From: Kiritimatiellia bacterium
GTDB taxonomy: Bacteria; Verrucomicrobiota; Kiritimatiellia; RFP12; UBA3636
Reading direction: 5' to 3'
NCBI GenBank assembly: GCA_045589455.1
Contig: JAZNPC010000010.1
Coordinates: 149-64,148 of the forward strand
DNA: 64,000 nucleotides
Position 1 is the first letter of the stretch, and each line of letters begins with the position of its first letter. Under the pieces are notes generated by a model that was not told the origin of the DNA, ran no database searches, and worked only from the letters and a program-made list of their open reading frames with translations. Position numbers and translations under genes: made by a program. This document shows, in pieces, positions 1,113-56,145 of this stretch.

Positions 1113-1194
1113 GTGCCAAGCTTTAACCTAAGATAATATATTTATTTCTTTACCCAGGAGGGTAGCGAAGCCACTCGGTGTTTCTAGGGAGAGA

Positions 1195-2160
1195 GACGCG
1201 AGACAATTAGACAGTGAAAAGCTAATTGTTGTTAGTCGCGTTGCTTATTGCTTTCGCCTAACACGGACACACATAGTGTGATTTTTACGGAGGACAATGG
1301 AGAATTGTACTAGCTTCCAATACTCCAAGAATCCCTCCGTGCCTCCTTACCTCTTTTTTCTCCGCGTTTCGCCGAAGGCTATAGCGAGAGCGCTTAAATA
1401 GTTGCACTTATTGCTTTCGCCTAACACGGAGGCTGGGGAGAACGGAGGCACGGAGAGGTTTGGGAAGATATTGGAGAAAGGGACTACAGCCCTTTGTGTG
1501 CTGACAGTATGACAGTTTGACAGAGCAGATGAGGGTGGCTTTGCCGCCCTAGACTCCCAACTGTCAAACTTTCCAACTCGCCCACTCGCAAACTGTCAAA
1601 CTTTCCAACACCTAAACAGTTCCATTTTTTTTGTATAGTTTGACAGTATGACAGTTTGATAGAGAAGATGAAGGTGGCTTTGCCGCCCTAGACCCCCAAC
1701 TGTCAAACTTTCCAACTCGCCCACTCGCAAACTGTCAAACTTTCCAAGCCTCAACACCTAAAAAGTTCCATTTTTTTATAGTTTGACAGTATGATAGTAT
1801 GACAGTTTGAGAGAGAAGATGAAGGTGGCTTTGCAGCCTCTCGCTTTCTCCCAAAACCCCATCACCCCTCCGTGCCTCCGTTCTCTTTATCCTCCGCGTT
1901 TCGCCGAAGGCTCAAGCGAGAGCGTTTAAATCGTTTCACTCATTGCTTTCGCCTAACACGGAGTACGGAGGTAAGGAGGAAAACTGCAAACAATAAAAAC
2001 CCCAGCAACTCTCCGTGTCTCCGTTCTCATGAAAATCACACTACGTGTGCTCCGCGTTTCGCCGAAGGCTATAGCGTCAGCTTGAAATCTGTCTTGTCGT
2101 CTAGCGTCTAACGTCACGATAGTCTTATCGTCTAATTGTCCTTGCGATAGTGCTTTAACA
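1195..2160. repeat. Mosaic intergenic repeat array 1, built from at least four recurring modules. R1 is a ~70 bp unit (ctccgcgtttcgccgaaggct…gcgtttaaatcgtt…ttgctttcgcctaacacgga), R2 is cacggacacacatagtgtgatttttacggagg, R3 is a ~135 bp unit rich in gacagtttgacag / ctgtcaaactttcc inverted repeats and present here in 2.5 tandem copies, and R4 is gaggctggggagaacggag…ggagaaaggg
   Basis: Read directly: the R1 copies lie at roughly 1364-1432, 1888-1960 and 2048-2080. The R3 tandem copies lie at roughly 1500-1629, 1630-1769 and 1770-1850. The same modules recur in the 6.6-7.9 kb array. Confidence 0.85.
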
Positions 2161-2277
2161 CCACGATTTAACATATTGCTTTTTCCCCCATGAGGGGGGC
2201 GACAATGACTCCGACTCTATAATGCTCTGTATTCTAGTTGCTTATCCAAGCACTTGTATGTGTTTAAGTGAAATTTC

Positions 2278-2308
2278 TTGACAAATATATGGTTGCTTAT
2301 GGTATTAT
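2278..2308 (+). promoter_or_regulatory. Candidate sigma70-like promoter for the large surface-protein gene, with a perfect TTGACA at 2278-2283 and a TATTAT-like -10 at 2303-2308
   Basis: The hexamers were read from the sequence. The spacing of about 19 bp is suboptimal. No experimental support. Confidence 0.2.
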
Positions 2309-2359
2309 TCAATCATAGTGAAATTTACTTTCTATATGATTATACTTGTGAGGTTAAAT

Positions 2360-5300
2360 ATGAAATTGTTAGAAAAATTTTTACTAGTTATACTTTGTTC
2401 CGTTAGTGTAATAACTCTTGCAGATACTACATATCGTGCTGGCTTACTCCAGAGTAAATTAAATCTTCAAAATAATGCAACTGGGGCTTTACCAACAGTA
2501 GACCTTGAACGCGTGCCTGGAACAGTAATGGCAAATATTTATGTCCCTAATGATAATGATGCTCCCAATGTTGGCTATTATAATGAATGGACTGGTAATA
2601 CAACATACTACAATACTCAAAATACGACCTTCGGTTATGCTGGACAAATGTGGTTTGTCAAAGATATCGAATATGTTTTTGGTAAGTATTTTGATGATTT
2701 CGGCTATGTGAAAATAGGTGATTCGGTAATCATTAACAACTCAAATTGGGAAGCTTTTGCTGTAGGTAATTTTACTCCAACTAGAACAGGATGGTATGAT
2801 GTAGAGTTTCGTGTTGGTGATGGAAATGGTGGTAAGGGCCCTAATGGTGGTGATTGGGGGCGCGATTTGGGTCTTGCTTGGAATACTAATGGTGTTACAA
2901 CTATGTCACCAAAGGATTCTTGGAATAAGATTGAAGACGATGGCTCAATGACATTTCTTCGCTGTATCACAGATGAAACCTTTGGAACACTAACTGATCT
3001 TAAACTAACAGATACAGGAGTTGATTTTTATATAACTGCTCCTGAAGTTTCAGATGTTTCTGCTACAATTTATTTTGGCTCAACAACGGGCATATTAGGC
3101 GATCCTTCCTCTTGGCAAAATGCATCCCAAACAGTAAATATTCCTGCTGGGGAAACGGGTGTCGTTGCCATTGAATGTACTGAAGGAGATTACCCTTTGT
3201 TTACAATATGTTGTTGTGGCGAATACAACGGAAATTTTGAACAATGGACTCCTGTTGTTTCCTCAGGAACATCTGCAACAGCTATTATTTCTGTAGCAGA
3301 TGTTCAATACACAAATGCAACTTGTGTGGTTACAATTGATAGCCTAGGAACTGGAGCAGAAATAGCAGATTTGTCTATAGAAATTAGTGAAACACCAGAT
3401 TTTGCTGGTGCTATACAATCAATTCCTTATGGTTCACAAATTTCAGATATTGGTCAATATTCTGTTGGGATTCCGAGCCTTTCAACTAATTGTATGTATT
3501 GGGCTCGTGCAGTTGTCGTAAATAATTTAGGTTCAACATTTCGTAGCAATCCAATCGATTTCAAGACTTTGTTGCCTGGTACACCTGTGTGTGGAATAGA
3601 GGCTCTTTCTAGAAGCTTTACTTCATTTACATTTGATCTGTCTGTCTCTGAATTTGGTGTAGGTGGAGAAAATGCAACAATTTCATTAGAGGTGTCAGAG
3701 ACAGAGGATTTCTCAGAAAAACTTACCTTTGGTGAAGCCTTTGTAACTAGTGCTCCTATAAAGAAATCAATTACGGCTACTAATTTGGACCCAGCTAAAA
3801 CCTATTATGTTCGAGGTAAGATTGTAAATTTCTGGGGAGTTGAGAATTTTTCTTTGACAGAAATTTTTTCCACAACAGATACTCCTGTAAAAATGTCTCA
3901 AATTTCATCAGTGTCTGGAGAAAATAATTCGGTTGTGCTCTCAATTAGTTCTATTGAGATGACTCCAGGCACAACCTATAATGTTGCATTCTATGTTGAC
4001 GGAAGGGTGATTGAAACTTTTGAGAATATGACTACACTTTCCTCTTTTTCTACAGAGTGGAGTGGTGCAAAAGGGTCTGAACATGAGTTAAAGATTGTTG
4101 TTGATTGCCTTTGGGGTGAAGAACAGTATTCTAATGAGTATTTGACAACCTTTATTGTTGGCTCATCAGTTGTCGGACTTGACTCAATCTCAAGCCTATC
4201 TACACAGGTATTGTTTGTTGGAGATAAAATAATGCTTCCAGAAGCAATAGGCACAGAGTTCTATAGCTGGAATACAAATTCAGTAATTAATGTTAATGGT
4301 AATGTTGTAAGTACATTAGAACCAGGCTGCAACATATTCAGACTTATAGCAAATGACAGTATAACAGGAGAAAGAACAGTAAAGGAAACTGGTATACTAA
4401 TTGTTGCTCCTGCACGAGAAACAATTAAAGGAGGTTTGTTCGTCCGTAGTGCTGATGGTAATTTTGATTGGAATAAGGCAGAGTCATGGGAGAGAATTTT
4501 AGGTACCAGCGACTATCCAAATAATCCAGACGATGTCGTTATGATTTATGGAGAGTTCTCTGGAGATAGAACAATCAATTTGAAGGAGGACATAACGATT
4601 GGATATTTGGGGGTAGGCGATTTGTCTACAAACAATAGAAAAGTAACACTTGGATCCTCTGGGTCACTAACGTTTAAAACCTCTGATGGAACAGCCTCGT
4701 GGATACGTTTGCCAGGAAAAATTAGTAATCCATGGATAGCATTTAATCGACCTGTTTCAATGGAGAATGATTTAGTTATTGATGGAATGTGTGGAGAAAG
4801 AATGCTTATTGATTTCTCGTCAACACTGACGGTTAATGAGTATCGTCTTTCCGCTACTCGTGTTGAGTGGTATGGTGGTGGGGCAGAATTTACTGATGGA
4901 CAATTTAGGCTTTATGGAGATGTTATTGGCTCTGGAATTATAGAAATTTATGCTAATACATTGATGACGCATAGAAATGTAAATACCAAATCATTCACAG
5001 GTATATGGAAAATTATGAATGGCCCTCATGATGGAAATTATGGTGGTGCAGGTCTATTTTTAGGTGGCACATATCTTTATAATGCAAAAGAATTGATAAT
5101 CGGCGGTGCATGGATGTCAAACAAAGAACGCCGTCTGGGTGCAAATGTTCAAACGGGTTGGCATAATGGATATCAATACGGAGCAATGACAAATGAGTGG
5201 AAAAATGTATTCCCTTCTCATGTTGTCATAGATGGAGGTAGGTTGCAGCTACTAAACGAAGGTCCTTTGGGCGGTGCTTCTTATAATGCGTATGTTGCAA

Positions 5301-6415
5301 CAGGTATTAGAGAGGATTATTTGGAAACAGATACATTGGAAATATCAAGTGGTCCAATGGGTAGCCTAGTCTCGAAGGTTGCAAAGCATCATCCTGGTAC
5401 ATATCCAAATGTAACTTCCACGATAACAAATCTTGTAGTAAGGAAGGGTGGTTCTGTTGCATTTGATATAAATACTATAGATAATGCTGGCTCTGCATAC
5501 CCTTTACTTACAAATTCAATGTATGTGGTTAATTCGCCAGAAGGTGTTTGGACTTCTCCCGATGGCTCCTATCAGGTGCTCCAATTCTTTAGCAAGAATA
5601 TTGAAGCAGAGACACATTATATTGCAATAAGAGATACTGCTACAGGAAAGATTAGCTTAACCAACTCCGTTACAACGAGGGGCTCATCGGGTAATTTCCG
5701 CGTTATTGATAAGTGGGACAATCCTAAAGAGGAAAGCTTCCCTGATGGGACAGAGTTTGTTTCCCTTTCTCTTTATCAAGAACGCAAGGTTGTTTTCTCT
5801 GAGCCAAATGCAACCATTAAGATTCTTTCTGGGTATTTGACAATGCCACATAATTCAGAATTTGGTAAATTGGATGATCCAAATACAGAAAGTGGAACTC
5901 TTGATTTTGGTGAAATAACTGGATATGTTTATTCAAGCTTCCAAAATAATTCTCCAGCAAAAATCGGGTGCAGAATTGTGGGCTCAAATGGATTGGTAAA
6001 ATCTGCTGGTGGAAAACTTGAATTATACCAACCATTGGATCAATTGTCTGGCGGTGTTTATGTAAATTGTGGTAGCCTAATTATGAAGAATGCCGCGACC
6101 TTTGGTGAAAATGATGTATATGTTTACGCAGGAGGAAAGGTAAGTATTTCTGGACAAAATCCGTTTAACACTAGAGCTACGCTTTATCTTGAAGAGCGTG
6201 ATTGGCTTCCTTGTTATAGTAAGCTTGATTTAGCAACAAGCGAGGAGGTAAAGGTTGGCAAGCTAATGGTAAATGGAACTTCTGTTCCTCGTGGTACTTA
6301 TGGTTCATCGCTCTCAAATGCAGAATTTGTAGATGACAATTTGTTTGAGGGTACAGGTGTAATAAAAGTATTAAGTGATGATTGCTTGCAACCAACTATT
6401 ATATTGATGAAGTAA
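2360..6415 (+). CDS. Very large secreted repetitive surface protein, a putative adhesin or beta-rich cell-surface protein of about 1350 aa
   Basis: The long ORF runs 2318..6415. The likely start is the ATG at 2360, which has a GAGG RBS and a signal-peptide-like N-terminus (MKLLEKFLLVILCSVSVITLA). The protein is Thr/Ser/Gly/Asn-rich with internal repeats (ISETPDFAG…, VSETEDFSE…). It contains no LRRs. Confidence 0.85.
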   Translation: MKLLEKFLLVILCSVSVITLADTTYRAGLLQSKLNLQNNATGALPTVDLERVPGTVMANIYVPNDNDAPNVGYYNEWTGNTTYYNTQNTTFGYAGQMWFVKDIEYVFGKYFDDFGYVKIGDSVIINNSNWEAFAVGNFTPTRTGWYDVEFRVGDGNGGKGPNGGDWGRDLGLAWNTNGVTTMSPKDSWNKIEDDGSMTFLRCITDETFGTLTDLKLTDTGVDFYITAPEVSDVSATIYFGSTTGILGDPSSWQNASQTVNIPAGETGVVAIECTEGDYPLFTICCCGEYNGNFEQWTPVVSSGTSATAIISVADVQYTNATCVVTIDSLGTGAEIADLSIEISETPDFAGAIQSIPYGSQISDIGQYSVGIPSLSTNCMYWARAVVVNNLGSTFRSNPIDFKTLLPGTPVCGIEALSRSFTSFTFDLSVSEFGVGGENATISLEVSETEDFSEKLTFGEAFVTSAPIKKSITATNLDPAKTYYVRGKIVNFWGVENFSLTEIFSTTDTPVKMSQISSVSGENNSVVLSISSIEMTPGTTYNVAFYVDGRVIETFENMTTLSSFSTEWSGAKGSEHELKIVVDCLWGEEQYSNEYLTTFIVGSSVVGLDSISSLSTQVLFVGDKIMLPEAIGTEFYSWNTNSVINVNGNVVSTLEPGCNIFRLIANDSITGERTVKETGILIVAPARETIKGGLFVRSADGNFDWNKAESWERILGTSDYPNNPDDVVMIYGEFSGDRTINLKEDITIGYLGVGDLSTNNRKVTLGSSGSLTFKTSDGTASWIRLPGKISNPWIAFNRPVSMENDLVIDGMCGERMLIDFSSTLTVNEYRLSATRVEWYGGGAEFTDGQFRLYGDVIGSGIIEIYANTLMTHRNVNTKSFTGIWKIMNGPHDGNYGGAGLFLGGTYLYNAKELIIGGAWMSNKERRLGANVQTGWHNGYQYGAMTNEWKNVFPSHVVIDGGRLQLLNEGPLGGASYNAYVATGIREDYLETDTLEISSGPMGSLVSKVAKHHPGTYPNVTSTITNLVVRKGGSVAFDINTIDNAGSAYPLLTNSMYVVNSPEGVWTSPDGSYQVLQFFSKNIEAETHYIAIRDTATGKISLTNSVTTRGSSGNFRVIDKWDNPKEESFPDGTEFVSLSLYQERKVVFSEPNATIKILSGYLTMPHNSEFGKLDDPNTESGTLDFGEITGYVYSSFQNNSPAKIGCRIVGSNGLVKSAGGKLELYQPLDQLSGGVYVNCGSLIMKNAATFGENDVYVYAGGKVSISGQNPFNTRATLYLEERDWLPCYSKLDLATSEEVKVGKLMVNGTSVPRGTYGSSLSNAEFVDDNLFEGTGVIKVLSDDCLQPTIILMK

Positions 6416-6515
6416 TAATCATATTATCCGTTTACAGCAAGCTAGTGCTATCGCACCAGAGCCGTAAACTAAACAGTGCTCTGCTTTTGCTATTGCAACT
6501 AGAGTGCCTCTCAAG

Positions 6516-6554
6516 GAGCCAATTCATTGACTGTGTCAGTTAATGAATTGGCTC
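6516..6554 (+). terminator. Putative terminator hairpin downstream of the large surface-protein gene. The stem is a perfect 13 bp (gagccaattcatt / aatgaattggctc) with a 13-nt loop
   Basis: The inverted repeat was read from the sequence. The downstream T-tract is weak (ttctcgttcc). Confidence 0.4.
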
Positions 6555-6604
6555 TTCTCGTTCCATGGGTGTCGGGTGATTGTCCTTGTGCTAGTGCTTT
6601 GTTG

Positions 6605-7885
6605 TGATGCGAGACTTTAGACGTTGAACGGACGCGAGACAATCAAACGTTGAAAGCTAATTGTCGTTAGTCGCGTTGCTTGTTGCTTTCGCCTAACACG
6701 GACACACATAGTGTGATTTTTACGGAGGACAAGGGAGCATTGTGCCAACAATCATTCCAGTACCCCAATCACCCCTCCGTGTCTCCGTTCCTCCAGAAAA
6801 CCACACTACGTGTGCTCCGTGTTTCGCCGATGGCTCAAGCGAGAGCGTTTAAATCGTTACACTTGTTGCTTACGCTCAACACGGAGTACGGAGGTAAATG
6901 GAGTACTATACTAACAATCATTATAATAACCCCAGCACCTCTCCGTGTCTCCGTTCTCTTAATCCTCCGCGTTTCGCCGAAGGCCACAGCGGGAGCGTTT
7001 AAATCGTTGCACTCGTTGCTTTCGCCTAACACGGAGACGCGGAGGCGCGGACAAAAGTGCTAGCAATCATTAACAACAACCCCATAACTCCCTCCGTGCC
7101 TCTGAGCCTCTTAATCCTCCGCGTTTCGCCGAAGGCTAGAGCGGGAGCGTTTAAATCGTTTCACTCATTGCTTACGCCTAACACGGAGGCTGGGGAGAAC
7201 GGAGACGCGGAGAGGTTTGGGAAGATATTGGAGAAAGGGGCTACAGCCCTTTGCGTGCTGACAGTATGACAGTTGGAGAGTGAAGATGAGGGTGGCTTGC
7301 CGCCCTAGACCCCCAACTGTCAAACTTTCCAACTCGCCCACTCGCAAACTGTCAAACTTTCCAACACCTAAACAGTTCCATTTTTTTATAGTTTGACAGT
7401 TTGACAGTATGATAGTATGACAGTTAGATAGTTGGAGAGAGAAGATGAAGGTGGCTTTGCCTCCTCTCGCTTTCTCCCCAAACCCCAGCACCTCTCCGTG
7501 TCTCCGTTCCTCCAGAAAACCACACTACGTGTGCTCCGCGTTTCGCCGAAGGCTAGAGCGCCAGCGACAAATCACTCAGCTGCGTACCCATCATCCGTGC
7601 AAATTTGTGCAAATTCGTGTTCGCGCCGCAGGCCTGAGCGTCAGCGTTTAAATCGTTGCACTCGTTGCTTTCGCTCAACACGGAGTACGGAGAAAAGGGC
7701 GCATTGTGCTAATCGTTTCACTCGTTGCTTTCGCTTAACACGGACACACATAGTGTGATTTTTACGGAGGTAAGGAGAATTGTGCTAGCAATCATTCCAA
7801 TACCCCAGAATATTCTCCGTGCCTCTGAGCCTCTTAATCCTCCGCGTTTCGCCGAAGGCTCAAGCGAGAGCGTTTAAATCAATCC
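6605..7885. repeat. Mosaic intergenic repeat array 2. It uses the same R1, R2, R3 and R4 modules as the 1.2-2.2 kb array, with about seven R1-type copies and 1.5 R3 copies
   Basis: Read directly: the R1-like copies lie at roughly 6813-6885, 6962-7033, 7112-7190, 7535-7560, 7640-7690 and 7838-7880. R2 lies at 6698-6730 and 7739-7771. R3 lies at 7257-7388 and 7389-7460. Confidence 0.85.
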
Positions 7886-7924
7886 TATCTGTGTTTCTGC
7901 GGGAGATAATATTGCGAAGCTCAT

Positions 7925-7954
7925 TGTTATACAGAGTTGTTGACATACTATAAT
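7925..7954 (+). promoter_or_regulatory. Candidate promoter for the BspA-like gene, with a perfect TATAAT at 7949-7954 and a TTGTTA-like -35 near 7925
   Basis: The hexamers were read from the sequence. The spacing is ambiguous. Confidence 0.2.
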
Positions 7955-8012
7955 TTAAAGTGGTAACATATTGCCATATTCAATGTTAGATAGTTTTTTA
8001 AGGAAAGAAATT

Positions 8013-10397
8013 ATGAAAAAATTTATATTCTTGATTCTACTTGCTGTGGCAACGTGTTCTTTTGGCGCTTGGAGATATGTTGAAGATCCAGGCAAATGGA
8101 ATAATGCTGGCGATAAATCATATACCGGTTATATCACCGACGATACTACTTGGACTATCTACGTTCTTCAGCTATCTGATGGTACATGGCAGCTAGGTGC
8201 AGGTACATTTGGTGTTGACTATGGCTCTGGAGGTGGTTCTTGTAATGCAGGCAGACCAAGTGGTTCTTTAGAATCAAACCAAAAAACAGACACTGGTATA
8301 GGTTCTGGAGTCTTGGACCTTTGTGAGGCTTTTGACGATTTGCCAGATATGCAATTTACAGCAATCGGTCCTAGATGCTTCTATAATCATAAGCAAATTA
8401 CAGGAATTGTTATTCCTGCAGAAATTAAGGTGCTTAAAACCAGCGCATTTCAAGGCAGTTCTTTGACAAGTATAACATTTGAGGCAGGTTCTCAATTAAC
8501 AACTATTCAGGATTCTGTATTTAGAAGCGCACAAAGCATAAAGATACTTAATCTAAAGGACACAAAATTGGAAAGCATTGGATCTGGTTGCTTTGATGCT
8601 GCATTAGGTTTTAGAGAAATCTCTTTACCAAGCACCTTAACAACTCTTTCAAGCAGTGCTTTCTCTTACATTACAGACTCTGATATGGTATATCATTTCG
8701 CTGGTTCTATTCCAACAAGTATTGGCAGCTCTGCATTTCGTCCTAGAAGCTTAAGTGAAAAAATCAAATGGGCTTTTTACGTTGATGTAAATACAAAAGG
8801 AACTTGGCCAATCAGAACTGATGTTGCATTTGCAGATGCAACTCTTCCTATGGTAGATGGCGTTACTTTTGCCGAAGAAGATTATCTTGGTTATTTGTAT
8901 TTGTCAGATTTGCCTGGCAATAATATTAACAGCCCACAAAAGGTTTGGATATTTAAAGAAGGCGTATTAAGTGCTATAGTTCCTCCTTCTATCTCTGCAA
9001 TTACTCAGACAGGAAGAAAAGATGTTTCCATCGATTTGGCATTGGATATGGGAACTGCAGATGTAGCATCAATGGAAGTAACTCTGAATGATACAACAAT
9101 CACAAAAGAAGGAACAGAAGACGGTACTTACGATTTTTATTTTGATGAACTTTCCCTTGAAACAACATATTCATGGGTTGCAATTCTTAAGGATGCAAAT
9201 GGTGATATTGTTCAACAAATTGTTGGTTCAGCAACAACTCTTCCTCCAGATATTTCTCTAGGTAAAACTTCATATACACAGCCAGCTGATGGTCTTTCAG
9301 CAACTGTATATGTTGAGATTGTTGAATTAAAAGGAGAGTCAGCTGAGATTGCTTTTACCTTTGATGGGAATGACGCCGTGACACAAACAGTTACATCGGC
9401 AGGAAAATATGGTTTTGATGTTACCAATTTGACTTTAGGTGAAAAATATAATTATTCATTTGTGGTTACATCTTCTCAAAATTCAGATGTCGCTTCTATT
9501 AATGGTGTGCTTGAAGCAGATTATTATCATTGGGTTTATACTGCTGCACCGGCAGGAAGTATCCGTAATGGTATGCCATATACAGGTGAACTAACTGATA
9601 GAAATTGGCGTTTATATATCTATTGCCCAGACCCAGAGAAGCCAGATGAGTTTTGGCTAGGCTGTGGTGGTGCAGGAACGTCTGCCACAGACGCAAATGG
9701 TAGAGGTGCTCTTGATCTTACTGCTGTCTATGCTGATACGTTAGCAGCGGGCACACCTGTAAAGATTATAGATGTCAATAGCTTTGCATTTGTAAGTAAT
9801 CAAAATCTTGAGAAGCTTGTCTTGCCTCGATTCACTCAGAATATTAGATCATATACTTTTTATGGATGTAGATCGCTAACAAGTGTTGATTTGTCTAAGA
9901 CACAAATTACTAATATTTCTGCTCGTGCTTTCCAAGATAACTATGGCTGTACAGAGTACTACTTGCCTAGAACATTGGTTAGTGTTGGAGCATGTGCATT
10001 TGCATGGGGTCCAGCCAAGCGTGCAATTCATTTCTTGGGAGATGTCCCAACTGTTGAAATTACAACACAGGCTACAGGTACTGGTAATGTAGGTGGCGAT
10101 CAGTCTTTCTATTCTGGTAATAATAATAATCAATGGGCTTATTGTGTTGATGCAAAGACATATCCACGTTGGAAGACAGATGCGTCCACAATTCTTTATA
10201 CTGATGAGAATCCTTTCCCTGCTGCTAGTGAGCAGACATGGATCCCTGAGAGTGTTCAATATGGCAAAGTGGATGGTTATGCAAAGCCATTTGGTAATTC
10301 TACACTTGGGCGTGGTTGGGATTCCTCTGCATTTGGTCGTGCATATTTGATTCAAGAGAATTACTATAATCCAGCAACAGTATTGATGATATTTTAA
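8013..10397 (+). CDS. BspA-type leucine-rich-repeat (LRR_5) cell-surface protein
   Basis: The ORF runs 7971..10397. The probable start is the ATG at 8013, which has an AAGGA RBS and a signal peptide (MKKFIFLILLAVATCSFG). BspA-like LRR units occur repeatedly (…LxxIxxxAFxxCxxLTSIxLPxxL…), for example IIDVNSFAFVSNQNLEKLVLPRF…FYGCRSLTSVDLS. Confidence 0.85.
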   Translation: MKKFIFLILLAVATCSFGAWRYVEDPGKWNNAGDKSYTGYITDDTTWTIYVLQLSDGTWQLGAGTFGVDYGSGGGSCNAGRPSGSLESNQKTDTGIGSGVLDLCEAFDDLPDMQFTAIGPRCFYNHKQITGIVIPAEIKVLKTSAFQGSSLTSITFEAGSQLTTIQDSVFRSAQSIKILNLKDTKLESIGSGCFDAALGFREISLPSTLTTLSSSAFSYITDSDMVYHFAGSIPTSIGSSAFRPRSLSEKIKWAFYVDVNTKGTWPIRTDVAFADATLPMVDGVTFAEEDYLGYLYLSDLPGNNINSPQKVWIFKEGVLSAIVPPSISAITQTGRKDVSIDLALDMGTADVASMEVTLNDTTITKEGTEDGTYDFYFDELSLETTYSWVAILKDANGDIVQQIVGSATTLPPDISLGKTSYTQPADGLSATVYVEIVELKGESAEIAFTFDGNDAVTQTVTSAGKYGFDVTNLTLGEKYNYSFVVTSSQNSDVASINGVLEADYYHWVYTAAPAGSIRNGMPYTGELTDRNWRLYIYCPDPEKPDEFWLGCGGAGTSATDANGRGALDLTAVYADTLAAGTPVKIIDVNSFAFVSNQNLEKLVLPRFTQNIRSYTFYGCRSLTSVDLSKTQITNISARAFQDNYGCTEYYLPRTLVSVGACAFAWGPAKRAIHFLGDVPTVEITTQATGTGNVGGDQSFYSGNNNNQWAYCVDAKTYPRWKTDASTILYTDENPFPAASEQTWIPESVQYGKVDGYAKPFGNSTLGRGWDSSAFGRAYLIQENYYNPATVLMIF

Positions 10398-10906
10398 GCT
10401 AAGTGCGTATAATAAGTAATTAACGTTATGCTTCTACCTTATGCTTAATATGCGGGCATTCGTGGAGCATACGTTGATTTGCGTGAACTTTTTCGGAGTG
10501 TTGGGGATTCAGCCCCAAACACTCCGTATTGCTTTATATACACCTACATACGCTATTGTGTCACCAGCACCACAATATAATCCACACAGGGCATTGCATT
10601 CTCTTAACACAGAGATGGTTGTAATTGCATTTGTGTAATTAAGTTATCCGTGTAAGTCATTCGTGTATGCACATTAGTGCAGTAAAACAGGATTAACAGG
10701 ATTGCTTGCGTTATAGCTTGAAGTGCGAGATTTTGTAATGTTTGGGGTTAGTCAGTGCTATCGCTTCAGGACTGAGCTATTCCGCTATATATTCCCTTAG
10801 TCTTTTAGAAAAATCGGTTGACTGCGGGGTGAGGGTATGGTAGAATCAAATGTGTTTTTTGCTAGTGTAAAGCAAAATGCTAATTTTTTCTAAAAAAGGA
10901 TTATAT

Positions 10907-12232
10907 ATGAAAACAAAGCTTGTAAAATTTATGTTTCTAATTAGTTGTTGTTGTCTAATGCCTACTCTATATGCAGCATGGACCCAGGATGGCTCCACTG
11001 CAACGGATGGAAATTGGATTTTAAGAATTGATACTAGTGATGGTGTTGTTAAAATTTTAGGGCCAAATGCTGGCTCAGGTGTTCTTGATATATCAACTAT
11101 CGCGAATGACTTGGGTTGCACTGGCGTGATTGTTGGAAATGAAGCTTTTATTGATAATAAAAATGTTACTGGATTGGTTCTCCCAGAAGACCTCATAGAG
11201 CTTTGTGATGGTGCATTTGAACGTTGCACAAATTTAGCTGGCGAGATCAGTACTACAGCAGCCTTCAAAATGTCTGGATATAATGCGTTTGATCGAACAG
11301 CAATTACCTCAGCTATCTTCCCGAATATGACAGGCTCTGTTGGTGCATGGGCATTTTATGAGTGTAAGCAACTAAAAACCGTTGTTCTTGGAGATGGGAT
11401 AACTTCTTTTGGAGAAAAAGCATTTTTCAGTTGTTCTGCACTTGAGTCTGTTTTGCCTAATACTTTGCAAAATGTTACTTTTATTGCTAACGAAGTATTC
11501 AAATATTGTTATGCATTAAAAAGTAGTATGTTTCTACCTAATGTTCGAGAAGTTAAATCTTTAGCATTTGAGGGTGTTGCTTGTGAAGAGATTTCTATGC
11601 CTTCTTGTACAAATATGGTGGGTGGTTGCTTTTATGGATCAAAGATTAAGAAAATTACTCATTCTCCTGATGTGCAGCTTAATGGAGATGTGTTCATTGG
11701 TTGTACTGAGTTAGAGGAGCTAGTTCCTGGAAAATTTAGGAATTTAAGTGTTATTCTAGATGGTACCTTTAAAAATTGCAATTCGCTAAAGAGTTTAGAT
11801 TTTACTGGTTGTACATTTACTTCTGTAAATATTAATTCAGCGCAGTATATGTATGAGATGAAGTATCTTGTGTTGCCAGAAACACTTACAGATATGGGAA
11901 ATTGGTCATTTGAGCGTATAAAGAATAGCGATGTTCTTTTCCGTGGCCCTAAACCAACAATTGGTGGCGGTAATGTTTTTGCTCATAATGGGAATAACCA
12001 AAAATTACGTAATAATATAATTTCTCTTGAAGAACATATTGCTTCATGGACAAATGCTAATTCTGGAGTAACTTTTACACCTCTAGCAAATGTCAGTGAT
12101 AATCAGAAGACAGATGACTATAAATATCCAACTACTAATATAGGGCGAGTTATTGGAACGGTTAACTTTGGTGCATCAACTCATTGGTTGTCTATTTTCA
12201 ATGAAATAGGCACAATTATATTTATAAGATAA
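10907..12232 (+). CDS. BspA-type leucine-rich-repeat surface protein, the smaller paralogue
   Basis: The ORF runs 10877..12232. The ATG at 10907 follows an AAGGA RBS and encodes a signal peptide (MKTKLVKFMFLISCCCLMPTLYA). It carries the same Cys-containing LRR_5-like repeats (GNEAFIDNKNVTGLVLPEDLIELCDGAFERCTNL…). Confidence 0.8.
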   Translation: MKTKLVKFMFLISCCCLMPTLYAAWTQDGSTATDGNWILRIDTSDGVVKILGPNAGSGVLDISTIANDLGCTGVIVGNEAFIDNKNVTGLVLPEDLIELCDGAFERCTNLAGEISTTAAFKMSGYNAFDRTAITSAIFPNMTGSVGAWAFYECKQLKTVVLGDGITSFGEKAFFSCSALESVLPNTLQNVTFIANEVFKYCYALKSSMFLPNVREVKSLAFEGVACEEISMPSCTNMVGGCFYGSKIKKITHSPDVQLNGDVFIGCTELEELVPGKFRNLSVILDGTFKNCNSLKSLDFTGCTFTSVNINSAQYMYEMKYLVLPETLTDMGNWSFERIKNSDVLFRGPKPTIGGGNVFAHNGNNQKLRNNIISLEEHIASWTNANSGVTFTPLANVSDNQKTDDYKYPTTNIGRVIGTVNFGASTHWLSIFNEIGTIIFIR

Positions 12233-12242
12233 TAATAAAAAA

Positions 12243-12288
12243 AAGGGGCTGTTGCAAAACTCAAAAGATTTGCAACAGCCCCTTTTTT
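12243..12288. terminator. Bidirectional rho-independent terminator between convergent genes, with stem ggggctgttgcaaa…tttgcaacagcccc and A/T tracts on both sides
   Basis: A perfect 14-bp inverted repeat with a ~10 nt loop. It is flanked by aaaaaaa on the plus side and tttttt on the minus side. Confidence 0.8.
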
Positions 12289-24989: not shown

Positions 24990-25330
24990 CTACGCTGGCT
25001 CACGCGGAGACGCAGAGACGCAGAGCTAGCGTGATGCACGTGACGCCGAAGGGACGCAGAGACGCTGAGGGCGCGGAGGACGCGGGGCTGGTGTGATGGG
25101 TGTGGTGTTGGGGCGCGAATGCGCACATTACCGCTTGTTGTTGCCTTGTCTTATTGCGAAATCTAACGAAGCAATAAGGCAACTGCCAAGCGCTAATGTG
25201 TACGACCCACCAAGGCTTTTAAGACGAGGAGCGTGATGCACGTGATGGTGTTTTGGATGCACCAAGCTTGGTTGTGCGCTGCGCCGCGTGCGGCGCAGAG
25301 AACGCGCTTGTGTGATGGCTAGAAGTGCTA
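24990..25330. repeat. GC-rich ~260 bp intergenic repeat element, copy A. It contains a gacgcagag heptamer/nonamer tandem, gtgatgcacgtgacgccgaagggacgc, the hairpin cttattgcgaaatctaacgaagcaataag, and the GC hairpin ctgcgccgcgtgcggcgcag
   Basis: About 93% identical to 50247-50510 by direct reading. It is placed immediately 3' of the ABC permease gene. Confidence 0.85.
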
Positions 25331-28731: not shown

Positions 28732-29352
28732 ATGGAACTCGGAGCAATTAAAAATCTAGCCTATGAGCTAATTGGCAATAAGGAAGAAGTTCCTCACGGA
28801 GTGGGATACCGCCTTGCTCATGGTTATAGAGTTGGTGCAATTGCAGAATGGATTGCACATGAGCTAGGAGAGAGCGATGAGCTACTTTTTGTTGCTGGCA
28901 TACTTCATGACATTGGTAAGGATAAGGCAGGACATCCAGAGGATGATGGAATAATGCATGGTCCGCGCGGAGCCGAGATTATTCGCAAGCAATTTATTCA
29001 TTTTATGAGCATAAATGAGCTTCAAAGAGTTGCTACAATGGTTGAAAATCATAATGCTCGCCCCAAAAGTAAGTGGTTTATCGATAAAGAGAAGCCACAG
29101 CATTCAACTGAGGTCTTAATACTTCAGGATGCAGATTTGCTAGATCATTTTGGTGAAGAAGGCATAAATATTACACTTAATTGGGGACGTTTTTTCAAAA
29201 AAACTCGCGAACAAATCCTTAAGGAATGGAAATATGGTGAGAGAGTAGCTCGAATGCATGAAGAGGTGCGCCGCTCTCTTAATTTTGATGTGTCAGTTCG
29301 TGAGTTTGATCGACGCCTAAAAATCATGCAGGATTACTTTTTAAAATTTTGA
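28732..29352 (+). CDS. HD-domain phosphohydrolase
   Basis: Has the HD motif (GILHDIGKD) and downstream His/Asp residues (LQDADLLDHFGEEG). Confidence 0.8.
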   Translation: MELGAIKNLAYELIGNKEEVPHGVGYRLAHGYRVGAIAEWIAHELGESDELLFVAGILHDIGKDKAGHPEDDGIMHGPRGAEIIRKQFIHFMSINELQRVATMVENHNARPKSKWFIDKEKPQHSTEVLILQDADLLDHFGEEGINITLNWGRFFKKTREQILKEWKYGERVARMHEEVRRSLNFDVSVREFDRRLKIMQDYFLKF

Positions 29353-29475
29353 TTTGTCAGTTTTAGGGTTTTAATTACGTATTAATACTATAGCAGGATT
29401 GTTTTGCTAAATTTTGATTTGTCAGTTTTGGGGTTTTAATTACGTATTAATACTATAGCAGGATTGTTTTGCTAA
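29344..29475. repeat. Two tandem copies of a ~64 bp direct repeat (attttgatttgtcagtttt[a/g]gggttttaattacgtattaatactatagcaggattgttttgctaa), followed by a truncated third start
   Basis: Read directly. The first copy overlaps the stop codon of the HD-domain gene. Confidence 0.85.
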
Positions 29476-29570
29476 ATTTTGATGCTGTGTTTTAACGAAT
29501 AATAAGCACATACATATAGGCGATTTAGTAGTTTTGTTTTTTTGTTTTAAAAAAAGAAAGGGATATAATA

Positions 29571-30422: not shown

Positions 30423-30589
30423 TTATGTAATCACAAGACATATTGTAATCTATTTTAGAAATTCATTCTATTTTTTCTGGGGGAGGCAAAATGTATTTGG
30501 TTGTATTTGACTTATTTACCCATTAATACCCTGCATTTCTAACAATTAACCGTATTACGCTCCTCATCTCAAAAATCTTGTGTGCGTAC

Positions 30590-30900
30590 ACACTGGCGCT
30601 TGGCAGTTGCCTTATTACTTCGAAGATTTCGTAATAGCAAGGCAATAACAAGCGCCAGTGTTTTTGTCGTTGTATCCACCACGAGAGCTCTGCGCCCCAG
30701 CGTCTTCCCCGACCACCATCCTGTCCACCGTCCTGTCCACCATCCTGTCCACCGTAGTTTTAACGTAGGTGGAAGTTTTAACGTAGGTGGAAGCCTTGGC
30801 GTAGGTGGTTGCGTCCTTTGGGCCCACGTAAGCCATCATTATAGCATTGCATCGAATTTAGGCCGATACTGCCCAATTAGCATTGAAACAGTAGTAAATC
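30590..30900. repeat. Degenerate, inverted copy of the ~260 bp repeat element, plus local tandem repeats: a 12-mer (catcctgtccac) in about 3.5 copies and an 18-mer (gttttaacgtaggtggaa) in 2 copies
   Basis: cttggcagttgccttatt…gcaataacaagcgc matches the reverse complement of the 25.14-25.19 kb segment. The tandem repeats were read directly at about 30711-30830. Confidence 0.7.
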
Positions 30901-40779: not shown

Positions 40780-41559
40780 ATGAATATTAAGCAGGTAGAA
40801 AAAAAAGCCTACATAATTTCATTTATTGTACATGCAGTACTAATAGTGGGGCTTGTTGTGGCTTCGATAATTAACGAGTTTTCTTGTACTCAAGAGCCCG
40901 TTGATGATGCCATGCCAATAGAGTTCACTGTTGACGTATCTTCTTTTGAGCAACAAGACGAACCAGTGGGAGATTTAATTGATGATTTAGAGCCCGAACC
41001 AGAACCCGAGCCAGAGCCAGAGCCAGAACCCGAGCCAGAGCCTGAGCCAGAGCCAGACCCTGATGCAGTGTCTGAGCCAGAGCCAGAGCCTCAACCTGAA
41101 AGACCTAGGCGCAAGCCTATTCAGACTTCTGATAAGGTTGTTATGATTAACCAGCCAAATATTCAACCACCTCCTTCTACACCTTCTCCAAGGGAAAGAA
41201 GTGATGATCTTACAGAAGAAGAGGTTAAGAAGCTTCTTGAAATTGGAGCAACAGCATCGGATCATACTTCGGTCCCTGGCGAACGTGAGCGTTGCCTTGC
41301 ATTGGTGTATAAGAAATTCTATGAAGCATGGCGTCGTCCAAGTCTCGCACCAACAGATGTTGCACGTGGTGCTGAGTTGACAATTTGGTTGGGCGATAAT
41401 GGTAGTATAAAAAAATATGAGCTTACTCGTTCTTCCGGTAATCGTCAGCTTGATGCTTCTGTTAAAGATGCTGCTCGTGTTGTTCGCCGTATACCAGGAT
41501 TAACATCAGGATTTATTAGAGATAATAGGACTTTAACAATCGAATTTAACCTCGAATAA
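40780..41559 (+). CDS. tonB: TonB-like energy transducer with a (Pro-Glu)n rigid spacer
   Basis: N-terminal TM (IISFIVHAVLIVGLVVASII), a long EPEPEPEP… tract and a Pro-rich segment, then a C-terminal TonB-like domain (…GSIKKYELTRSSGNRQLDASVKDAA…). Confidence 0.7.
   Translation: MNIKQVEKKAYIISFIVHAVLIVGLVVASIINEFSCTQEPVDDAMPIEFTVDVSSFEQQDEPVGDLIDDLEPEPEPEPEPEPEPEPEPEPEPDPDAVSEPEPEPQPERPRRKPIQTSDKVVMINQPNIQPPPSTPSPRERSDDLTEEEVKKLLEIGATASDHTSVPGERERCLALVYKKFYEAWRRPSLAPTDVARGAELTIWLGDNGSIKKYELTRSSGNRQLDASVKDAARVVRRIPGLTSGFIRDNRTLTIEFNLE
40981..41055 (+). repeat. Hexanucleotide tandem repeat (gagcc[a/n] ×~12) encoding the TonB (PE)n spacer
   Basis: Read directly: gagcccgaaccagaacccgagccagagccagagccagaacccgagccagagcctgagccagagccagac. 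Confidence 0.8.
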
Positions 41560-50246: not shown

Positions 50247-50510
50247 CAGCTAGCGTGATGCACGTGACGCCGAAGGGACGCAGAGACGCAGAGACGCAGA
50301 GCTAGCGTGATGCACGTGACGCCGAAGGGACGCAGAGACGCAGAGGGCGCGGAGGACGCGGGGCTGGTGTGATGGGTGTGGTGTGGGGCGCGAATGCGCA
50401 CATTCCCGCTTGTTGTTGCCTGGGTTTATTGCGAAATCTAACGAAGCAATAAGGCAACTGCCAAGCGCTAATGTGTATGACCCACCAAGGCTTTTGAGGT
50501 TGGGGGCGTG
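50247..50510. repeat. GC-rich ~260 bp intergenic repeat element, copy B. It has an internal duplication of the agctagcgtgatgcacgtgacgccgaagggacgcagagacgcagag segment
   Basis: Near-identical to 24990-25230. It lies immediately 3' of the fucosidase gene, at the transition to the AT-rich island. Confidence 0.85.
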
Positions 50511-52248: not shown

Positions 52249-53868
52249 ATGTGTTTATGGATTGTTGTTGGTTCTATTTTAGCATTTATTATAACAATAT
52301 GTATTATGTATTGGAATGTTGTTAAAATTTTATTAATTATAGTTGCTATAATTTATGTGCTATCTTTATTAGTCAGCTTAATTAAAAAAGTAATTAAAAA
52401 GGTTGAGCATGAAAATGAGTTGAAATTATTTGCTATAAATGAAGAGAATAAAACCGAAGAAAAAAAACAAAACATAAATTTCAAAAAGTTGTCAAATATA
52501 CTTTTTGTATCAACAATAGATTTAAGAGAGCATCCATTAAAAAACGAAAAGTATAAAAAACGTAAACAATATTTTGAAGTATTAATGTTTCTAATTAATA
52601 ATTCAGTGATTTCAGAAAAATTGAAAGATTTTACTGAAGGTCGTTTATCTATGTATTTTGATTGTTTGTTGCCTGAATTGATGTCTGAAAAGAGTGAAAT
52701 ATTAAATCAAAAAATAGAAGAAAAGGTTTTTATAAAAAAATTAATGCCTTTGTTTTATTTTGCTAATGTAAAGTATTCATATATATTTCTGTCAGATTTG
52801 TGTTTGTTTCTTCAAGAAGAATCGCTAATTTCATATGCAATAGTTGTATTAAAACGATATCTACCCAAATTTATGTGGGCAAAAATAGATAAAAAATATT
52901 ATAGAATTAAAAATTTATCAGTAATATCTGAAAAATATAAGCAGATTGCTGTTTTAATAGAGCAATATAAAACCAATATTGAATTTTTTGCTAGAAAGGA
53001 AAAAAGGGTAATTGTTACAGCTCTTGTTAGTGCAGGAAAATCAACACTAATTAATTCTTTAATTGGAGAAAGATTAACTAGAACAAAATCGGAAATTTGT
53101 ACAAGTAATTTGGCATACATATATAATAAAGCCTATAATGATGGGACCCTTCATTTTTATCAAAATGATAATAAAAAATCTTCTATAAACCAATGTGTGT
53201 GCTTTAATGCAAGTGAAGATGACATAAATACTTATGATATAAATGAAAAAATAAATGTTTCTGCATCGTTTTTAGGTGTTTACTCAAATTGGTCTAGAAT
53301 TTGTTTAATAGATACACCAGGGGTTGATGCTGCTATTAATGTGGAACATGGGGAGTGTACAAAAAAAGCTCTTTTAAATGAGTGTTATGATATGATTCTT
53401 TATGTGGTAAGTCCAAATCAAATAAGTACGGATTCACAAAAAGAATATTTAAAATGGATATTAAATAATCTTCCTAAAAAAAAGATAGTTTTCGTTATTA
53501 ATAAATTAGATACATTAAAACCTAAAGAAGATAGTATAGCTGATACAATATTTAATTTTTATAAAGATTTATGTGATATCGGTTTTAAGAATCCTACTAT
53601 TTGTCCAATATCTTCTTATTTTTCTTTCTTATTAAAGCAAAAAATATCAGGAAAAGACTTTTCCGAAGATGAAATTGACGATTTTAGGTTTTATAGTAGT
53701 AGGTTTTCTAAACCATTTTATAATTTATCAGGATATTATAACGAAGAATTAGAAGATATTAATCTTGAAATAAATGATTTATTGCAATTAAGCAAACGTT
53801 GTGGTTTATATGGTATTGAAAAAATAATAAATGAGGAAATAAATGAAAAAAATATTTATAAAATATAA
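52249..53868 (+). CDS. Bacterial dynamin-like GTPase 1, N-terminally membrane-anchored
   Basis: Two N-terminal TM helices. The dynamin-type G domain has G1 (ALVSAGKSTLINSLIG), G3 (LIDTPGVD) and G4 (FVINKLD) motifs. The 3' end overlaps the next gene. Confidence 0.8.
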   Translation: MCLWIVVGSILAFIITICIMYWNVVKILLIIVAIIYVLSLLVSLIKKVIKKVEHENELKLFAINEENKTEEKKQNINFKKLSNILFVSTIDLREHPLKNEKYKKRKQYFEVLMFLINNSVISEKLKDFTEGRLSMYFDCLLPELMSEKSEILNQKIEEKVFIKKLMPLFYFANVKYSYIFLSDLCLFLQEESLISYAIVVLKRYLPKFMWAKIDKKYYRIKNLSVISEKYKQIAVLIEQYKTNIEFFARKEKRVIVTALVSAGKSTLINSLIGERLTRTKSEICTSNLAYIYNKAYNDGTLHFYQNDNKKSSINQCVCFNASEDDINTYDINEKINVSASFLGVYSNWSRICLIDTPGVDAAINVEHGECTKKALLNECYDMILYVVSPNQISTDSQKEYLKWILNNLPKKKIVFVINKLDTLKPKEDSIADTIFNFYKDLCDIGFKNPTICPISSYFSFLLKQKISGKDFSEDEIDDFRFYSSRFSKPFYNLSGYYNEELEDINLEINDLLQLSKRCGLYGIEKIINEEINEKNIYKI

Positions 53869-56134: not shown

Positions 56135-56145
56135 AGGAGTATATT

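Follow-up and report, generated by a model that had tools for sequence, protein, structure and literature searches.

Mosaic intergenic repeat arrays bracket a near-identical surface-protein cassette in an uncultured Kiritimatiellia lineage

A stretch of 64,000 nucleotides from a Kiritimatiellia bacterium (GenBank assembly GCA_045589455.1, contig JAZNPC010000010.1, positions 149 to 64,148 of the forward strand; hereafter the window) carries two non-coding repeat blocks, array A (1190-2156) and array B (6572-7893), which were delimited by reading of the sequence and with repeat finders. Array A lies between the stop of ilvE (1112) and the start (2360) of a gene for a 1351-amino-acid protein, here called the giant gene, and array B between the stop of the giant gene (6415) and the start (8013) of the first BspA-like gene (BspA1). 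We consider it probable (roughly 0.6) that these arrays are lineage-specific intergenic mosaic repeats, similar to the Neisseria intergenic mosaic elements (NIME) and the bacterial interspersed mosaic elements (BIME) of E. coli, which are reshuffled by recombination and act as junctions for the exchange of gene cassettes. The arrays would sit outside gene-proximal promoters and terminators and would grow, shrink and reorder via recombination or slippage between units. Since the same modules occur at many intergenic sites they would provide portable homology, and chromosomal rearrangements as well as incoming DNA would resolve inside the repeat modules. The two arrays of the window would bracket a surface-protein cassette of ca. 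8.5 kb lately exchanged between species, while the repeats themselves would be selfish or neutral.

The original prediction, made from the DNA sequence alone, held that two mosaic arrays of common modules surround the giant gene, which proved correct: a BLAST comparison of A with B covered 93% of A and 86% of B, with all shared modules on the + strand. Matches to four key motifs numbered 8, 9, 3 and 8 over the 64 kb, every one within the arrays, against an expectation of 0.00 from 100 shuffles; the same modules are absent from the rest of the window. The G+C content is 47-53% in the arrays versus 36-40% in the flanking genes, and Tandem Repeats Finder reported a 152-bp period (2.5 copies) at 6815-7188.

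At least 10 module types occur in variable order, and most of them are imperfect palindromes with arms built as runs of 7-8-nt words. The constant element, M1, is about 33 nt long (CTCCGYGTTTCGCCGAAGGC-N3-AGCG-N2-AGCG). It has at least four continuations (M2, a ACAAATCAC terminus, H or X), and on its left stand K blocks or S, the latter sometimes accompanied by M4. Together with a linker and M2 it forms the 72-bp P unit, and because M2 finishes with a diverged M1 core in inverted form (TTGCTTTCGCCTAACACGGAG), the P unit is an imperfect palindrome. This unit of about 70 bp, formerly counted in at least 10 copies, is real, but only five copies are complete; the other seven are partial, with M1 alone three times (2050, 7534, 7840) and M2 alone four times (1247, 6683, 7647, 7711). 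Consecutive P units are separated by the S spacer of ca. 78 bp, which has ACGGAG words on the left and CTCCGT words on the right. The mini-hairpin M4 (17-21 nt, CACAC-NNN-GTGTG-RTTTT) comes and goes independently on the left and right sides of S, always beside a CGGAG word, and resembles a weak hairpin with a T-run in either orientation. This hairpin unit (cacacatagtgtgattttt) had been reported in three copies, which are the forward ones; three inverted copies (M4r; 2032-2049, 6797-6814 and 7516-7533) had been overlooked. The ggagaacggag...ggagaaaggg unit, module G, is present as described, once per array (1431-1500, 7188-7253). In array A, G pairs with the right arm of S (SR) in a stem of more than 20 bp around 2.3 copies of module K. 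The latter is the tandem unit that had been given as ca. 135 bp in 2.5 and 1.5 copies; it exists, but with a period of 139 bp and in ca. 2.3 (A) and ca. 1.5 (B) copies.

The remaining large module is the H hairpin, composed of GTCT/AGAC words and intact in locus L002 (L numbers denote the database contigs and loci used for comparison). Its arms in the window are complementary, with a score of 29 versus 13.5 +/- 2.8 in shuffles. The left arm with loop (HL, Hloop) ends array A and the loop with right arm (HR) starts array B, so that the giant gene lies between H halves. It does so in all strains examined, with its own promoter-like site and terminator hairpin. The two loops (2135-2156 and 6579-6600) are 91% identical, and both loop copies were detected along with weak traces of the gene-proximal arms. 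The giant gene may have inserted into the loop of one H hairpin, or there may be two half-eroded H elements.

Comparison of strains showed that the arrays are dynamic. The giant gene was found on contigs from at least 15 independent assemblies (L051, L058-L072; L071 is the metagenome-assembled genome (MAG) RGIG4692 itself). Across the genes these contigs are 97-98% identical to the window, but the arrays differ; core genes of the same genomes differ by 14-16% at the DNA level. The interval from the giant gene to BspA1 measures 1598 bp in the window versus 702 or 559 bp in L058-L067, the 702-bp version reading Hloop HR X M2' M4 S M1 M2 S M1' and the 559-bp version being that of L064. Junctions in array B, located by alignment overlap, fall inside homologous S-M1 or M2-M4-S units. 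Array A is absent 5' of the intact giant gene in other strains, which retain only part of the H left arm; the upstream neighbour is ilvE in the window and a BspA2 homologue or a gene for 938 amino acids elsewhere. Other strains possess an M1-M2-G-K(1-4) array 3' of BspA1, where the window keeps a remnant, and the K copy number ranges from ca. 1 to 4 among strains. At the site of this remnant other strains have either a 210-bp S-M4r-M1-M2-G block or a whole array. L064 differs from the window by a clean 210-bp indel (S-M4r-M1-M2-G') at 10614/10615, between ...TTAACACAGAG and ATGGTTGTAAT...; it starts with TACGGAGG, ends with GCGGAG and shows a 3-nt GAG microhomology. RGIG4692 has M1-M2-G-K 3' of the giant gene and, beyond it, a pst operon, with no BspA-like gene called. 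Each arrangement was found in 2 to >6 independent samples. The recombination-type modular shuffling proposed earlier is thus seen between strains that are 97-98% identical, as differences in array length and order with junctions inside homologous units, and the comparison of isolates suggested at the time revealed an array B shortened to one third, a missing array A and an extra array after BspA1.

That the repeats are an assembly artefact confined to one assembly can be set aside for all practical purposes. Repeats do confuse assemblers, and several MAG copies of the family described below are found close to a contig end, a few hundred bp away at most, with M1 at both ends of L033. However, the same modules flank the giant gene in the same order in the at least 15 independent assemblies, which were made with different assemblers, and the family occurs in four MAGs.

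The cassette, consisting of the giant gene and BspA1, spans ca. 8.5 kb, ends in repeat modules and differs from the core genome in its synonymous divergence (dS). For the giant gene dS is 0.024-0.032 versus RGIG4692-type contigs and for BspA1 it is 0.021 versus L058 and L068. By contrast, ilvE gives 0.91 (L015) and a gene at 61.7 kb gives 0.27 (L007), both versus the RGIG4692 MAG, and the Iso_dh, PGI, GT2 and PEP-utiliser genes give 0.64-1.26 versus the closest database genomes, which show 84-86% nucleotide identity over 8.5 kb. The contrast between cassette and core is 10- to 60-fold. Low cassette dS next to diverged core genes indicates that the cassette moved between lineages long after their divergence. 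The high-identity tract starts at 2094-2125, within the H left arm, and ends at 10614 in the M2-like remnant, or at 6715 (M4) in RGIG4692; core synteny with the closest genomes stops where the BspA/giant block has its edge, at 12284. A dS of 0.23 versus L068 was obtained for the second BspA-like gene (BspA2), which is a recombinant mosaic. This mosaic (window 10877-12232) is 97% identical to L068 over 10911-11511 and 79-81% over 11511-12111, and in other strains a BspA2 homologue or pseudogene fragments are located 5' of the giant gene and not 3' of BspA1. The closest homologues of ilvE and PGI have 95-96% protein identity and belong to Kiritimatiellae by their source names; the contig nearest for ilvE, L049, stops 168 bp past the gene and has no array sequence there. 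The giant protein falls in a 90% cluster of 21 members and has only 8 database proteins at E <= 1e-10. The dN/dS ratios are 0.22-0.52 for the giant gene and 0.59 for BspA1, far above the value of 0.02 for ilvE, which points to relaxed constraint or diversifying selection on the secreted giant and BspA-like proteins.

Several points weigh against recombination at the repeats as the cause of exchange. Breakpoints at repeats are an association, not causation, and arrays might accumulate at pre-existing hot spots. No enzyme that moves or recombines the units was found among the leading families listed for the 78 neighbour genes, in the scanned open reading frames of the window or by tblastn in ca. 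0.45 Mb. The dS baseline rests on seven core genes only. The comparison contigs are short-read metagenome assemblies, prone to mis-joins at dispersed repeats, so the variable contexts 3' of the post-BspA array may include chimeras, and the junction of ilvE with array A occurs solely in the window. A causal or facilitating role of the repeats in the exchange is inferred.

Both arrays draw their modules from a dispersed, lineage-specific family. A 20-mer from M1 matched 48 stretches in GTDB species genomes, 44 of them in four MAGs of gut Kiritimatiellae, namely RGIG4692 (roe deer), RGIG9845 (yak), RGIG990 (cattle) and CALDQE01; in the remaining four stretches the similarity is confined to the 20-mer. 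The search of relatives for copy number and location that had been recommended thus yielded 44 intergenic M1 loci. All repeat regions in the MAGs are intergenic, with 21 between tandem, four between convergent and four between divergent gene pairs (n=29). The arrays there reach 583 bp and display other module orders and additional word-hairpin modules. Single elements have a variable 5' extent and a constant 3' end, M1 + ACAAATCAC..CCGTGTAC. Transposition via single-stranded DNA should leave a replication-strand bias. Of the M1 copies, 46 lie on the C-rich and 18 on the G-rich strand (ca. 22 versus 9 loci), a bias that is modest and confounded with gene orientation; the window represents the minority orientation. 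Synteny breaks at the repeat in the L010/L016 and L033/L018 pairs, and comparison of empty with filled sites was therefore uninformative in these cases. In L025 (5295-5486) and L044 (6702-6861) an M1-S element occupies an orthologous site 5' of the same gene in opposite orientations, adjoining the same unique flank (ATTTGTGTAT...) in the two species. A scan of JGI metagenomes gave six M1 matches, five of which were the 20-mer only on unrelated high-G+C contigs; the left flank of the sixth, L055, looks related.

The 78 genes next to the repeats were assigned to 125 Pfam families, mostly housekeeping. They include EF-G, RecA, GidA, PEPCK, an AAA ATPase and UxaC, together with some accessory or defence-type genes; LRR (leucine-rich repeat) or BspA families are not among the 25 leading families listed. 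Smaller clusters in the window, related in style to the arrays, adjoin metG, SDF-transporter and fucosidase genes, and with the mostly housekeeping neighbours this indicates that the repeat family is not tied to adhesin genes. Three distinct AAA_14 + DUF4143 ATPases (PADLOC PDC-S01, candidate defence) are encoded 120-450 bp from repeats in three MAGs (L004:563-1777, L030:5873-7201, L047:3298-4629), and genes for an AbiEii toxin and a cytosine methyltransferase likewise adjoin repeats. The repeats may border accessory or defence islands.

These surroundings bear on the suggestion that the arrays regulate the adjacent secreted-adhesin genes in cis, acting by promoter or UTR (untranslated region) switching through rearrangement or as genes for small RNAs (sRNA), which we regard as very unlikely. 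In the window both large arrays do lie 5' of secreted-protein genes in sense orientation, their length and order vary between strains, and the K modules include TTGACA words. An adhesin-specific role is not supported, however, since elsewhere the family has no adhesin association and its orientation relative to neighbour genes is mixed (ca. 9 sense versus 15 antisense). The best sigma-70-like sites are located downstream of the arrays, and promoter-like sites are found there in unique DNA; the promoter-like site upstream of the giant gene is identical in L051. Moreover, strains without any array A possess an intact giant gene with 97-98% identity. The sRNA proposal fares no better, as Rfam gave no match at gathering score in the 64 kb, and in E-value mode only three miRNA models at chance level (E 0.13-0.79), and no covariation was found.

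A further question is whether the units are non-autonomous transposons, like miniature inverted-repeat transposable elements (MITE) or REPINs, mobilised in trans by a RAYT (REP-associated tyrosine transposase, REP standing for repetitive extragenic palindrome), an IS200/IS605-type HUH enzyme or an IS110-type enzyme. Such an enzyme would recognise M1 or the mini-hairpins, the arrays would be nested insertion hot spots, and recombination would be secondary. The dispersal in both orientations over many unrelated intergenic sites fits this explanation, as do the opposite element orientations in L025 and L044 and the single elements with variable 5' extents and a constant 3' end. The same holds for the nesting (K in the G/SR stem, H at a TTGAAA site, M4 optional on either side of S) and for the position-specific conservation of M1, as for a protein recognition site. 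The earlier alternative of miniature elements that colonised intergenic sites is correct as far as the dispersal over 44 loci in four MAGs is concerned, but the signature of terminal repeats and target duplication is missing and no transposase was found. The 210-bp indel is clean and shows the GAG microhomology in place of terminal inverted repeats, and M4 is present or absent without duplication, which does not fit a MITE. The ends of P and M1 lack the GTAG or CGTC tag (criteria of PMC3733652). A scan of 2.9 million viral contigs revealed no M1, which speaks against transposons of this kind and also led us to discard a phage or plasmid origin. No transposase, RAYT or integrase was detected in the 78 neighbour genes, the scanned window open reading frames (ORFs) or the ca. 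0.45 Mb covered by tblastn. Specifically, integrase, transposase and Y1_Tnp are not among the 25 leading families listed for the 78 neighbours (Pfam, PHROGs, PADLOC), and 36 scanned window ORFs, of 42 with at least 150 amino acids, contain no Phage_integrase or other recombinase. Searches with RAYT and IS200 TnpA sequences returned nothing below E = 0.19 in the ca. 0.45 Mb, which is a small sample of each genome. On balance we consider transposition as the main force doubtful, though it is the chief alternative.

The conservation of M1 deserves separate consideration. Information content was calculated over 84 copies from five genomes, with the positions outside the search 20-mer being informative. 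The core has ca. 1.8-2.0 bits, N3 0.06-0.6, the first AGCG 1.1-1.5, N2 0.02-0.04 and the second AGCG 0.8-1.45 bits. As the free positions are randomised and the blocks are kept, the copies appear to be old with constrained blocks, or there is repeated sequence-specific homogenisation. Judged from the sequences, such a pattern would be expected for a protein recognition site, and a protein may recognise M1. A reading of M1 as GNA/GNNA mini-hairpins was dropped after a three-copy AGCGGG variant was seen in L013, the stems being just 2-3 bp, and the element is now read as AGCG-N2-AGCG direct words. M1 could be the site of a dedicated Ssn/RAYT/IS110-type enzyme, either a site-specific recombinase or a single-strand nuclease/transposase, in a NIME-like system that drives cassette exchange between species. 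The tandem-word hairpins would then be by-products or binding arrays of this machinery. We hold this more specific proposal to be tentative and rather unlikely; genes for Ssn-like, phage integrase or IS110-type proteins were not found among the leading families listed for the 78 neighbour genes or in the window ORFs scanned. Recombination between mosaic repeats, which we prefer, does not account for the way in which M1 is conserved position by position, nor for hairpin arms made of tandem words.

The palindromic nature of the modules could also indicate a housekeeping function at the RNA level, as in REP or BOX elements, with arrays co-transcribed with the upstream gene and hairpins that serve as 3'-end stabilisers, terminators or insulators. 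Predicted folds are indeed very stable, with -196 kcal/mol and z = -11.5 for 1411-1912 and z = -4.6 for the P-S-P stretch 6815-7190. M4 looks like a weak hairpin with a T-run in both orientations, the palindromic units are usable in either orientation, and 21 of the 29 sites lie between co-directional genes. Nevertheless, RNAalifold on 33 aligned units recovered only the invariant stem between the M2 end and the M1 start, without compensatory changes: 14 predicted pairs are invariant, and right-arm variants of S have no counterpart on its left arm. Many arms are complementary word by word only, and the giant gene has a strong terminator of its own (6511-6555) that precedes array B. Elements also occur in the four divergent, promoter-only regions, and gains or losses of arrays separate strains with 97-98% identity in the block. 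Together these data make an RNA function unlikely, and a structured RNA was rejected for the lack of a gathering-score match in Rfam and of compensatory changes.

Three other types of element were considered and rejected. An integron is contradicted by the absence of IntI or another recombinase in the scanned window ORFs and by the cassette having its own promoter-like site and terminator. A CRISPR array was dismissed because the 'spacers' S and K are repeat families common to several loci and no cas-type domains occur in the window ORFs scanned. For a DNA-uptake sequence, tens of copies per genome are too few. The positions of all modules and of the neighbouring features are collected in Table 1.

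Table 1. Repeat modules, genes and signals at the array locus (positions in the window)
Feature	Position	Strand	Remarks
ilvE	99-1112		gene upstream of array A
Array A	1190-2156	+	HR' X M2' M4 S M1 M2 G K K K' SR M1 M2 S M4r M1 HL Hloop
H right-arm fragment (1195-1220) and X (1221-1246)	1195-1246	+	array B opens alike (X 6656-6681)
M2 3' half	1247-1267	+	after module X, not M1
M4 + S hairpin	1268-1359	+	M4 is CACAC-ATA-GTGTG-ATTTT; S has GGAG/CTCC words
Complete P	1360-1431	+	M1 1360-1392, M2 1394-1431; imperfect palindrome CTCCGCGTT...AACACGGAG
G module	1431-1500	+	GGCTGGGGAGAACGGAGGCACGGAGAGG...; left arm of 20-bp-plus stem, right arm 1860-1891
K block	1502-1850	+	139-bp period, ca. 2.3 copies; GACAGTNT / CTGTCAAAC word hairpins
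SR right arm	1851-1891	+	CTCCGTGCCTCCGTTCTC; closes G...K hairpin of array A
Complete P (M1 + M2)	1892-1963	+	
S hairpin + inverted M4	1964-2049	+	inverted M4 at 2032-2049
M1	2050-2076	+	followed by H left arm in place of M2
H left arm + H loop	2081-2156	+	GTCTNNNC words; loop 2135-2156; directly 5' of giant-gene promoter region
Promoter-like site	2279-2312	+	TTGACA ... TGGTATTAT; 120 bp 3' of array A; unique sequence; by sequence reading
Giant gene	2360-6415	+	1351 amino acids; N-terminus signal-peptide-like, no Pfam domain
Strong stem-loop, then TTCTCGTT	6511-6555	+	read as giant-gene terminator; unique sequence, 5' of array B
Array B (module order in this and the next row)	6572-7893	+	Hloop HR X M2' M4 S M4r M1 M2 S M1 M2 S M1 M2
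Array B, continued after third M1 M2		+	G K K' SR M4r M1 T M2 M2' M4 S M1'
H loop + H right arm	6579-6655	+	loop 6579-6600; AGACGNNN words
M2 3' half	6683-6702	+	after module X
M4 + S + inverted M4	6703-6814	+	inverted M4 at 6797-6814
Complete P (M1 + M2)	6815-6886	+	copy with greatest divergence
S hairpin	6887-6964	+	
Complete P (M1 + M2)	6965-7036	+	
S hairpin	7037-7116	+	GCGGAG-word variant
Complete P (M1 + M2)	7117-7188	+	
G module, copy 2	7188-7253	+	
K block	7259-7470	+	ca. 1.5 copies; 8-mer tandem within at 7390-7433
SR right arm + inverted M4	7471-7533	+	inverted M4 at 7516-7533; closes G...K block of array B
M1	7534-7560	+	followed by terminal-type module T
T module	7566-7645	+	ATCCGTG / ATTTGTG words + TTCGCGCCGCAGGC, M1-like variant; junction of element-end types, single in L030
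M2	7647-7685	+	after module T
Solo M2	7711-7744	+	
M4 + S hairpin	7745-7839	+	
Final M1 of array B	7840-7872	+	unit truncated at ca. 7893
Promoter-like site	7940-7969	+	TTGACA-18-TAACAT (with TG); 47 bp 3' of array B
BspA1, first BspA-like gene (LRR_5)	8013-10397	+	belongs to high-identity cassette
Repeat remnant	10593-10707	+	M2-like ...TTAACACAGAG + ATCCGTG/ATTCGTG words

The window contains further repeats. A second intergenic family of ca. 230 bp, composed of GCAGAGAC words around a conserved palindrome (...ttattgcgaaatctaacgaagcaataagg...), is found at 25022-25248 and 50249-50498, with the inner palindrome inverted at 30567-30707. This family is common to the MAG loci L031, L047, L010 and L006, and in the window it adjoins the metG, SDF-transporter and fucosidase genes. 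At 30713-30808 a 12-mer repeated 3.4 times (CCACCATCCTGT) next to an 18-mer repeated 2.9 times (AGTTTTAACGTAGGTGGA) forms a CCACC/GGTGG hairpin, a further case of arms built from tandem short words. A 65-bp tandem repeat with 2.2 copies that are 98% identical (29344-29483) separates an HD-domain gene from a 283-amino-acid ORF without Pfam match. Within a TonB_2 ORF (40780-41559) the hexamer AGAGCC is repeated 17 times with a 30-bp super-period (40989-41090) and probably encodes a Glu/Pro-rich TonB linker. Finally, region 52249-59950 harbors two adjacent dynamin-family GTPase genes, a 172-amino-acid ORF and a gene for a 1102-amino-acid HerA/DUF87-type ATPase, a cluster possibly involved in defence or membrane remodelling.

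The results place a NIME-like architecture in an uncultured gut lineage of the Planctomycetes-Verrucomicrobia-Chlamydiae (PVC) group, whereas earlier study concerned mainly a few cultured Proteobacteria and Firmicutes. They add population evidence that dynamic arrays bound a cassette which is near-identical between genomes whose core synonymous sites are saturated or nearly so. If the repeats promote exchange, they would offer gut Kiritimatiellae a route to diversify and share large secreted and LRR proteins, and M1 would be a handle for tracing the enzyme involved. Because the repeats break short-read MAGs, with copies near contig ends, under-binning or mis-joining is likely to affect the lineage's accessory surface genes.

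A search of the available literature gave no paper that ties such repeats to Kiritimatiellae. Several known systems share part of their architecture. REPs are defined as palindromes of 20-40 bp with a GTAG or CGTC tag and an associated RAYT gene (PMC3733652). They are extragenic and located mostly between co-directional or convergent genes (PMC3733652; see also PMC3116915). Similar to REP, BIME and REPIN elements, the modules described here are extragenic imperfect palindromes, often in inverted pairs, clustered as mosaics with linker motifs, and they are lineage-specific in sequence with conserved stems and variable loops. Unlike REPs, the palindromic units are long, with 72 bp (P), ca. 78 bp (S) and ca. 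150 bp (H), the sole short palindrome being M4 with 13 bp. The arms are built of tandem 7-8-nt words, and the tag is lacking at M1 or P ends in the 84 copies; GTAG is confined to the loop of inverted M4, and CGTC to words inside H. Arrays A and B are also arranged head-to-tail in one orientation and do not alternate as in BIMEs.

Pneumococcal BOX elements (boxA-boxB(n)-boxC) and the rhizobial RIMEs are modular, non-coding intergenic elements with strong predicted structure. In BOX the three module types always follow the same order and the internal module varies in number, whereas the present arrays have 10 or more module types, joined by a constant linker in an order that varies. Cyanobacteria reportedly carry short tandemly repeated repetitive (STRR) heptamers and small dispersed repeats as intergenic runs of tandem 7-nt words, and mini-elements of 21-27 nt are said to be nested there in other repeats or hairpins without target duplication. 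M4 and the word-built arms resemble these, but phylum and sequences differ, and to our knowledge no M1-like constant linker or bracketing of cassettes has been described for the cyanobacterial repeats. The imperfect palindromes of ca. 60-150 bp and the position of the giant gene between the halves of the H palindrome recall integron attC sites. However, the arrays are 1 kb of repeats and not one attC site per promoter-less cassette, and the matches of H to RYYYAAC/GTTRRRY cores are a chance outcome of GTCTAAC-type words.

The closest parallel in architecture is with the NIME arrays, in which a constant 20-bp element flanks more than 100 families of 50-150-bp modules (PMC1797815). Their constant element is dRS3 (ATTCCC-N8-GGGAAT) or NTS (CGTCATTCCCGCGMAVGCGGGAATCYRG) (PMC1797815, PMC11893778), and in its NTS form dRS3 folds into a hairpin, which the small GIY-YIG nuclease SsnA cuts as single-stranded DNA (PMC11893778). 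NIME arrays vary between strains in repeat number and length, flank variable surface-protein genes and contain the ends of recombination tracts, and they have been proposed as substrate for homologous recombination or a specific recombinase; according to the FAM18 genome paper of 2007 they had not been seen outside Neisseria (PMC1797815). The Kiritimatiellae family differs in several respects. Its host is a PVC-group anaerobe, M1 has tens and not hundreds of copies per genome, and its neighbours are mostly housekeeping genes without a family-wide surface-protein bias. In addition, M1 has no similarity to dRS3 or NTS and lacks 6-bp terminal inverted repeats on either side of an 8-nt centre, being composed of a 20-nt core and two AGCG blocks. 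As in NIME, on the other hand, a constant element alternates with many module families in long intergenic arrays, and syntenic arrays differ between strains in repeat number and length. At the locus described here the arrays flank a surface-protein cassette and the exchanged tract ends in H, M4 and the M2-like remnant, whereas the family as a whole sits mostly beside housekeeping genes.

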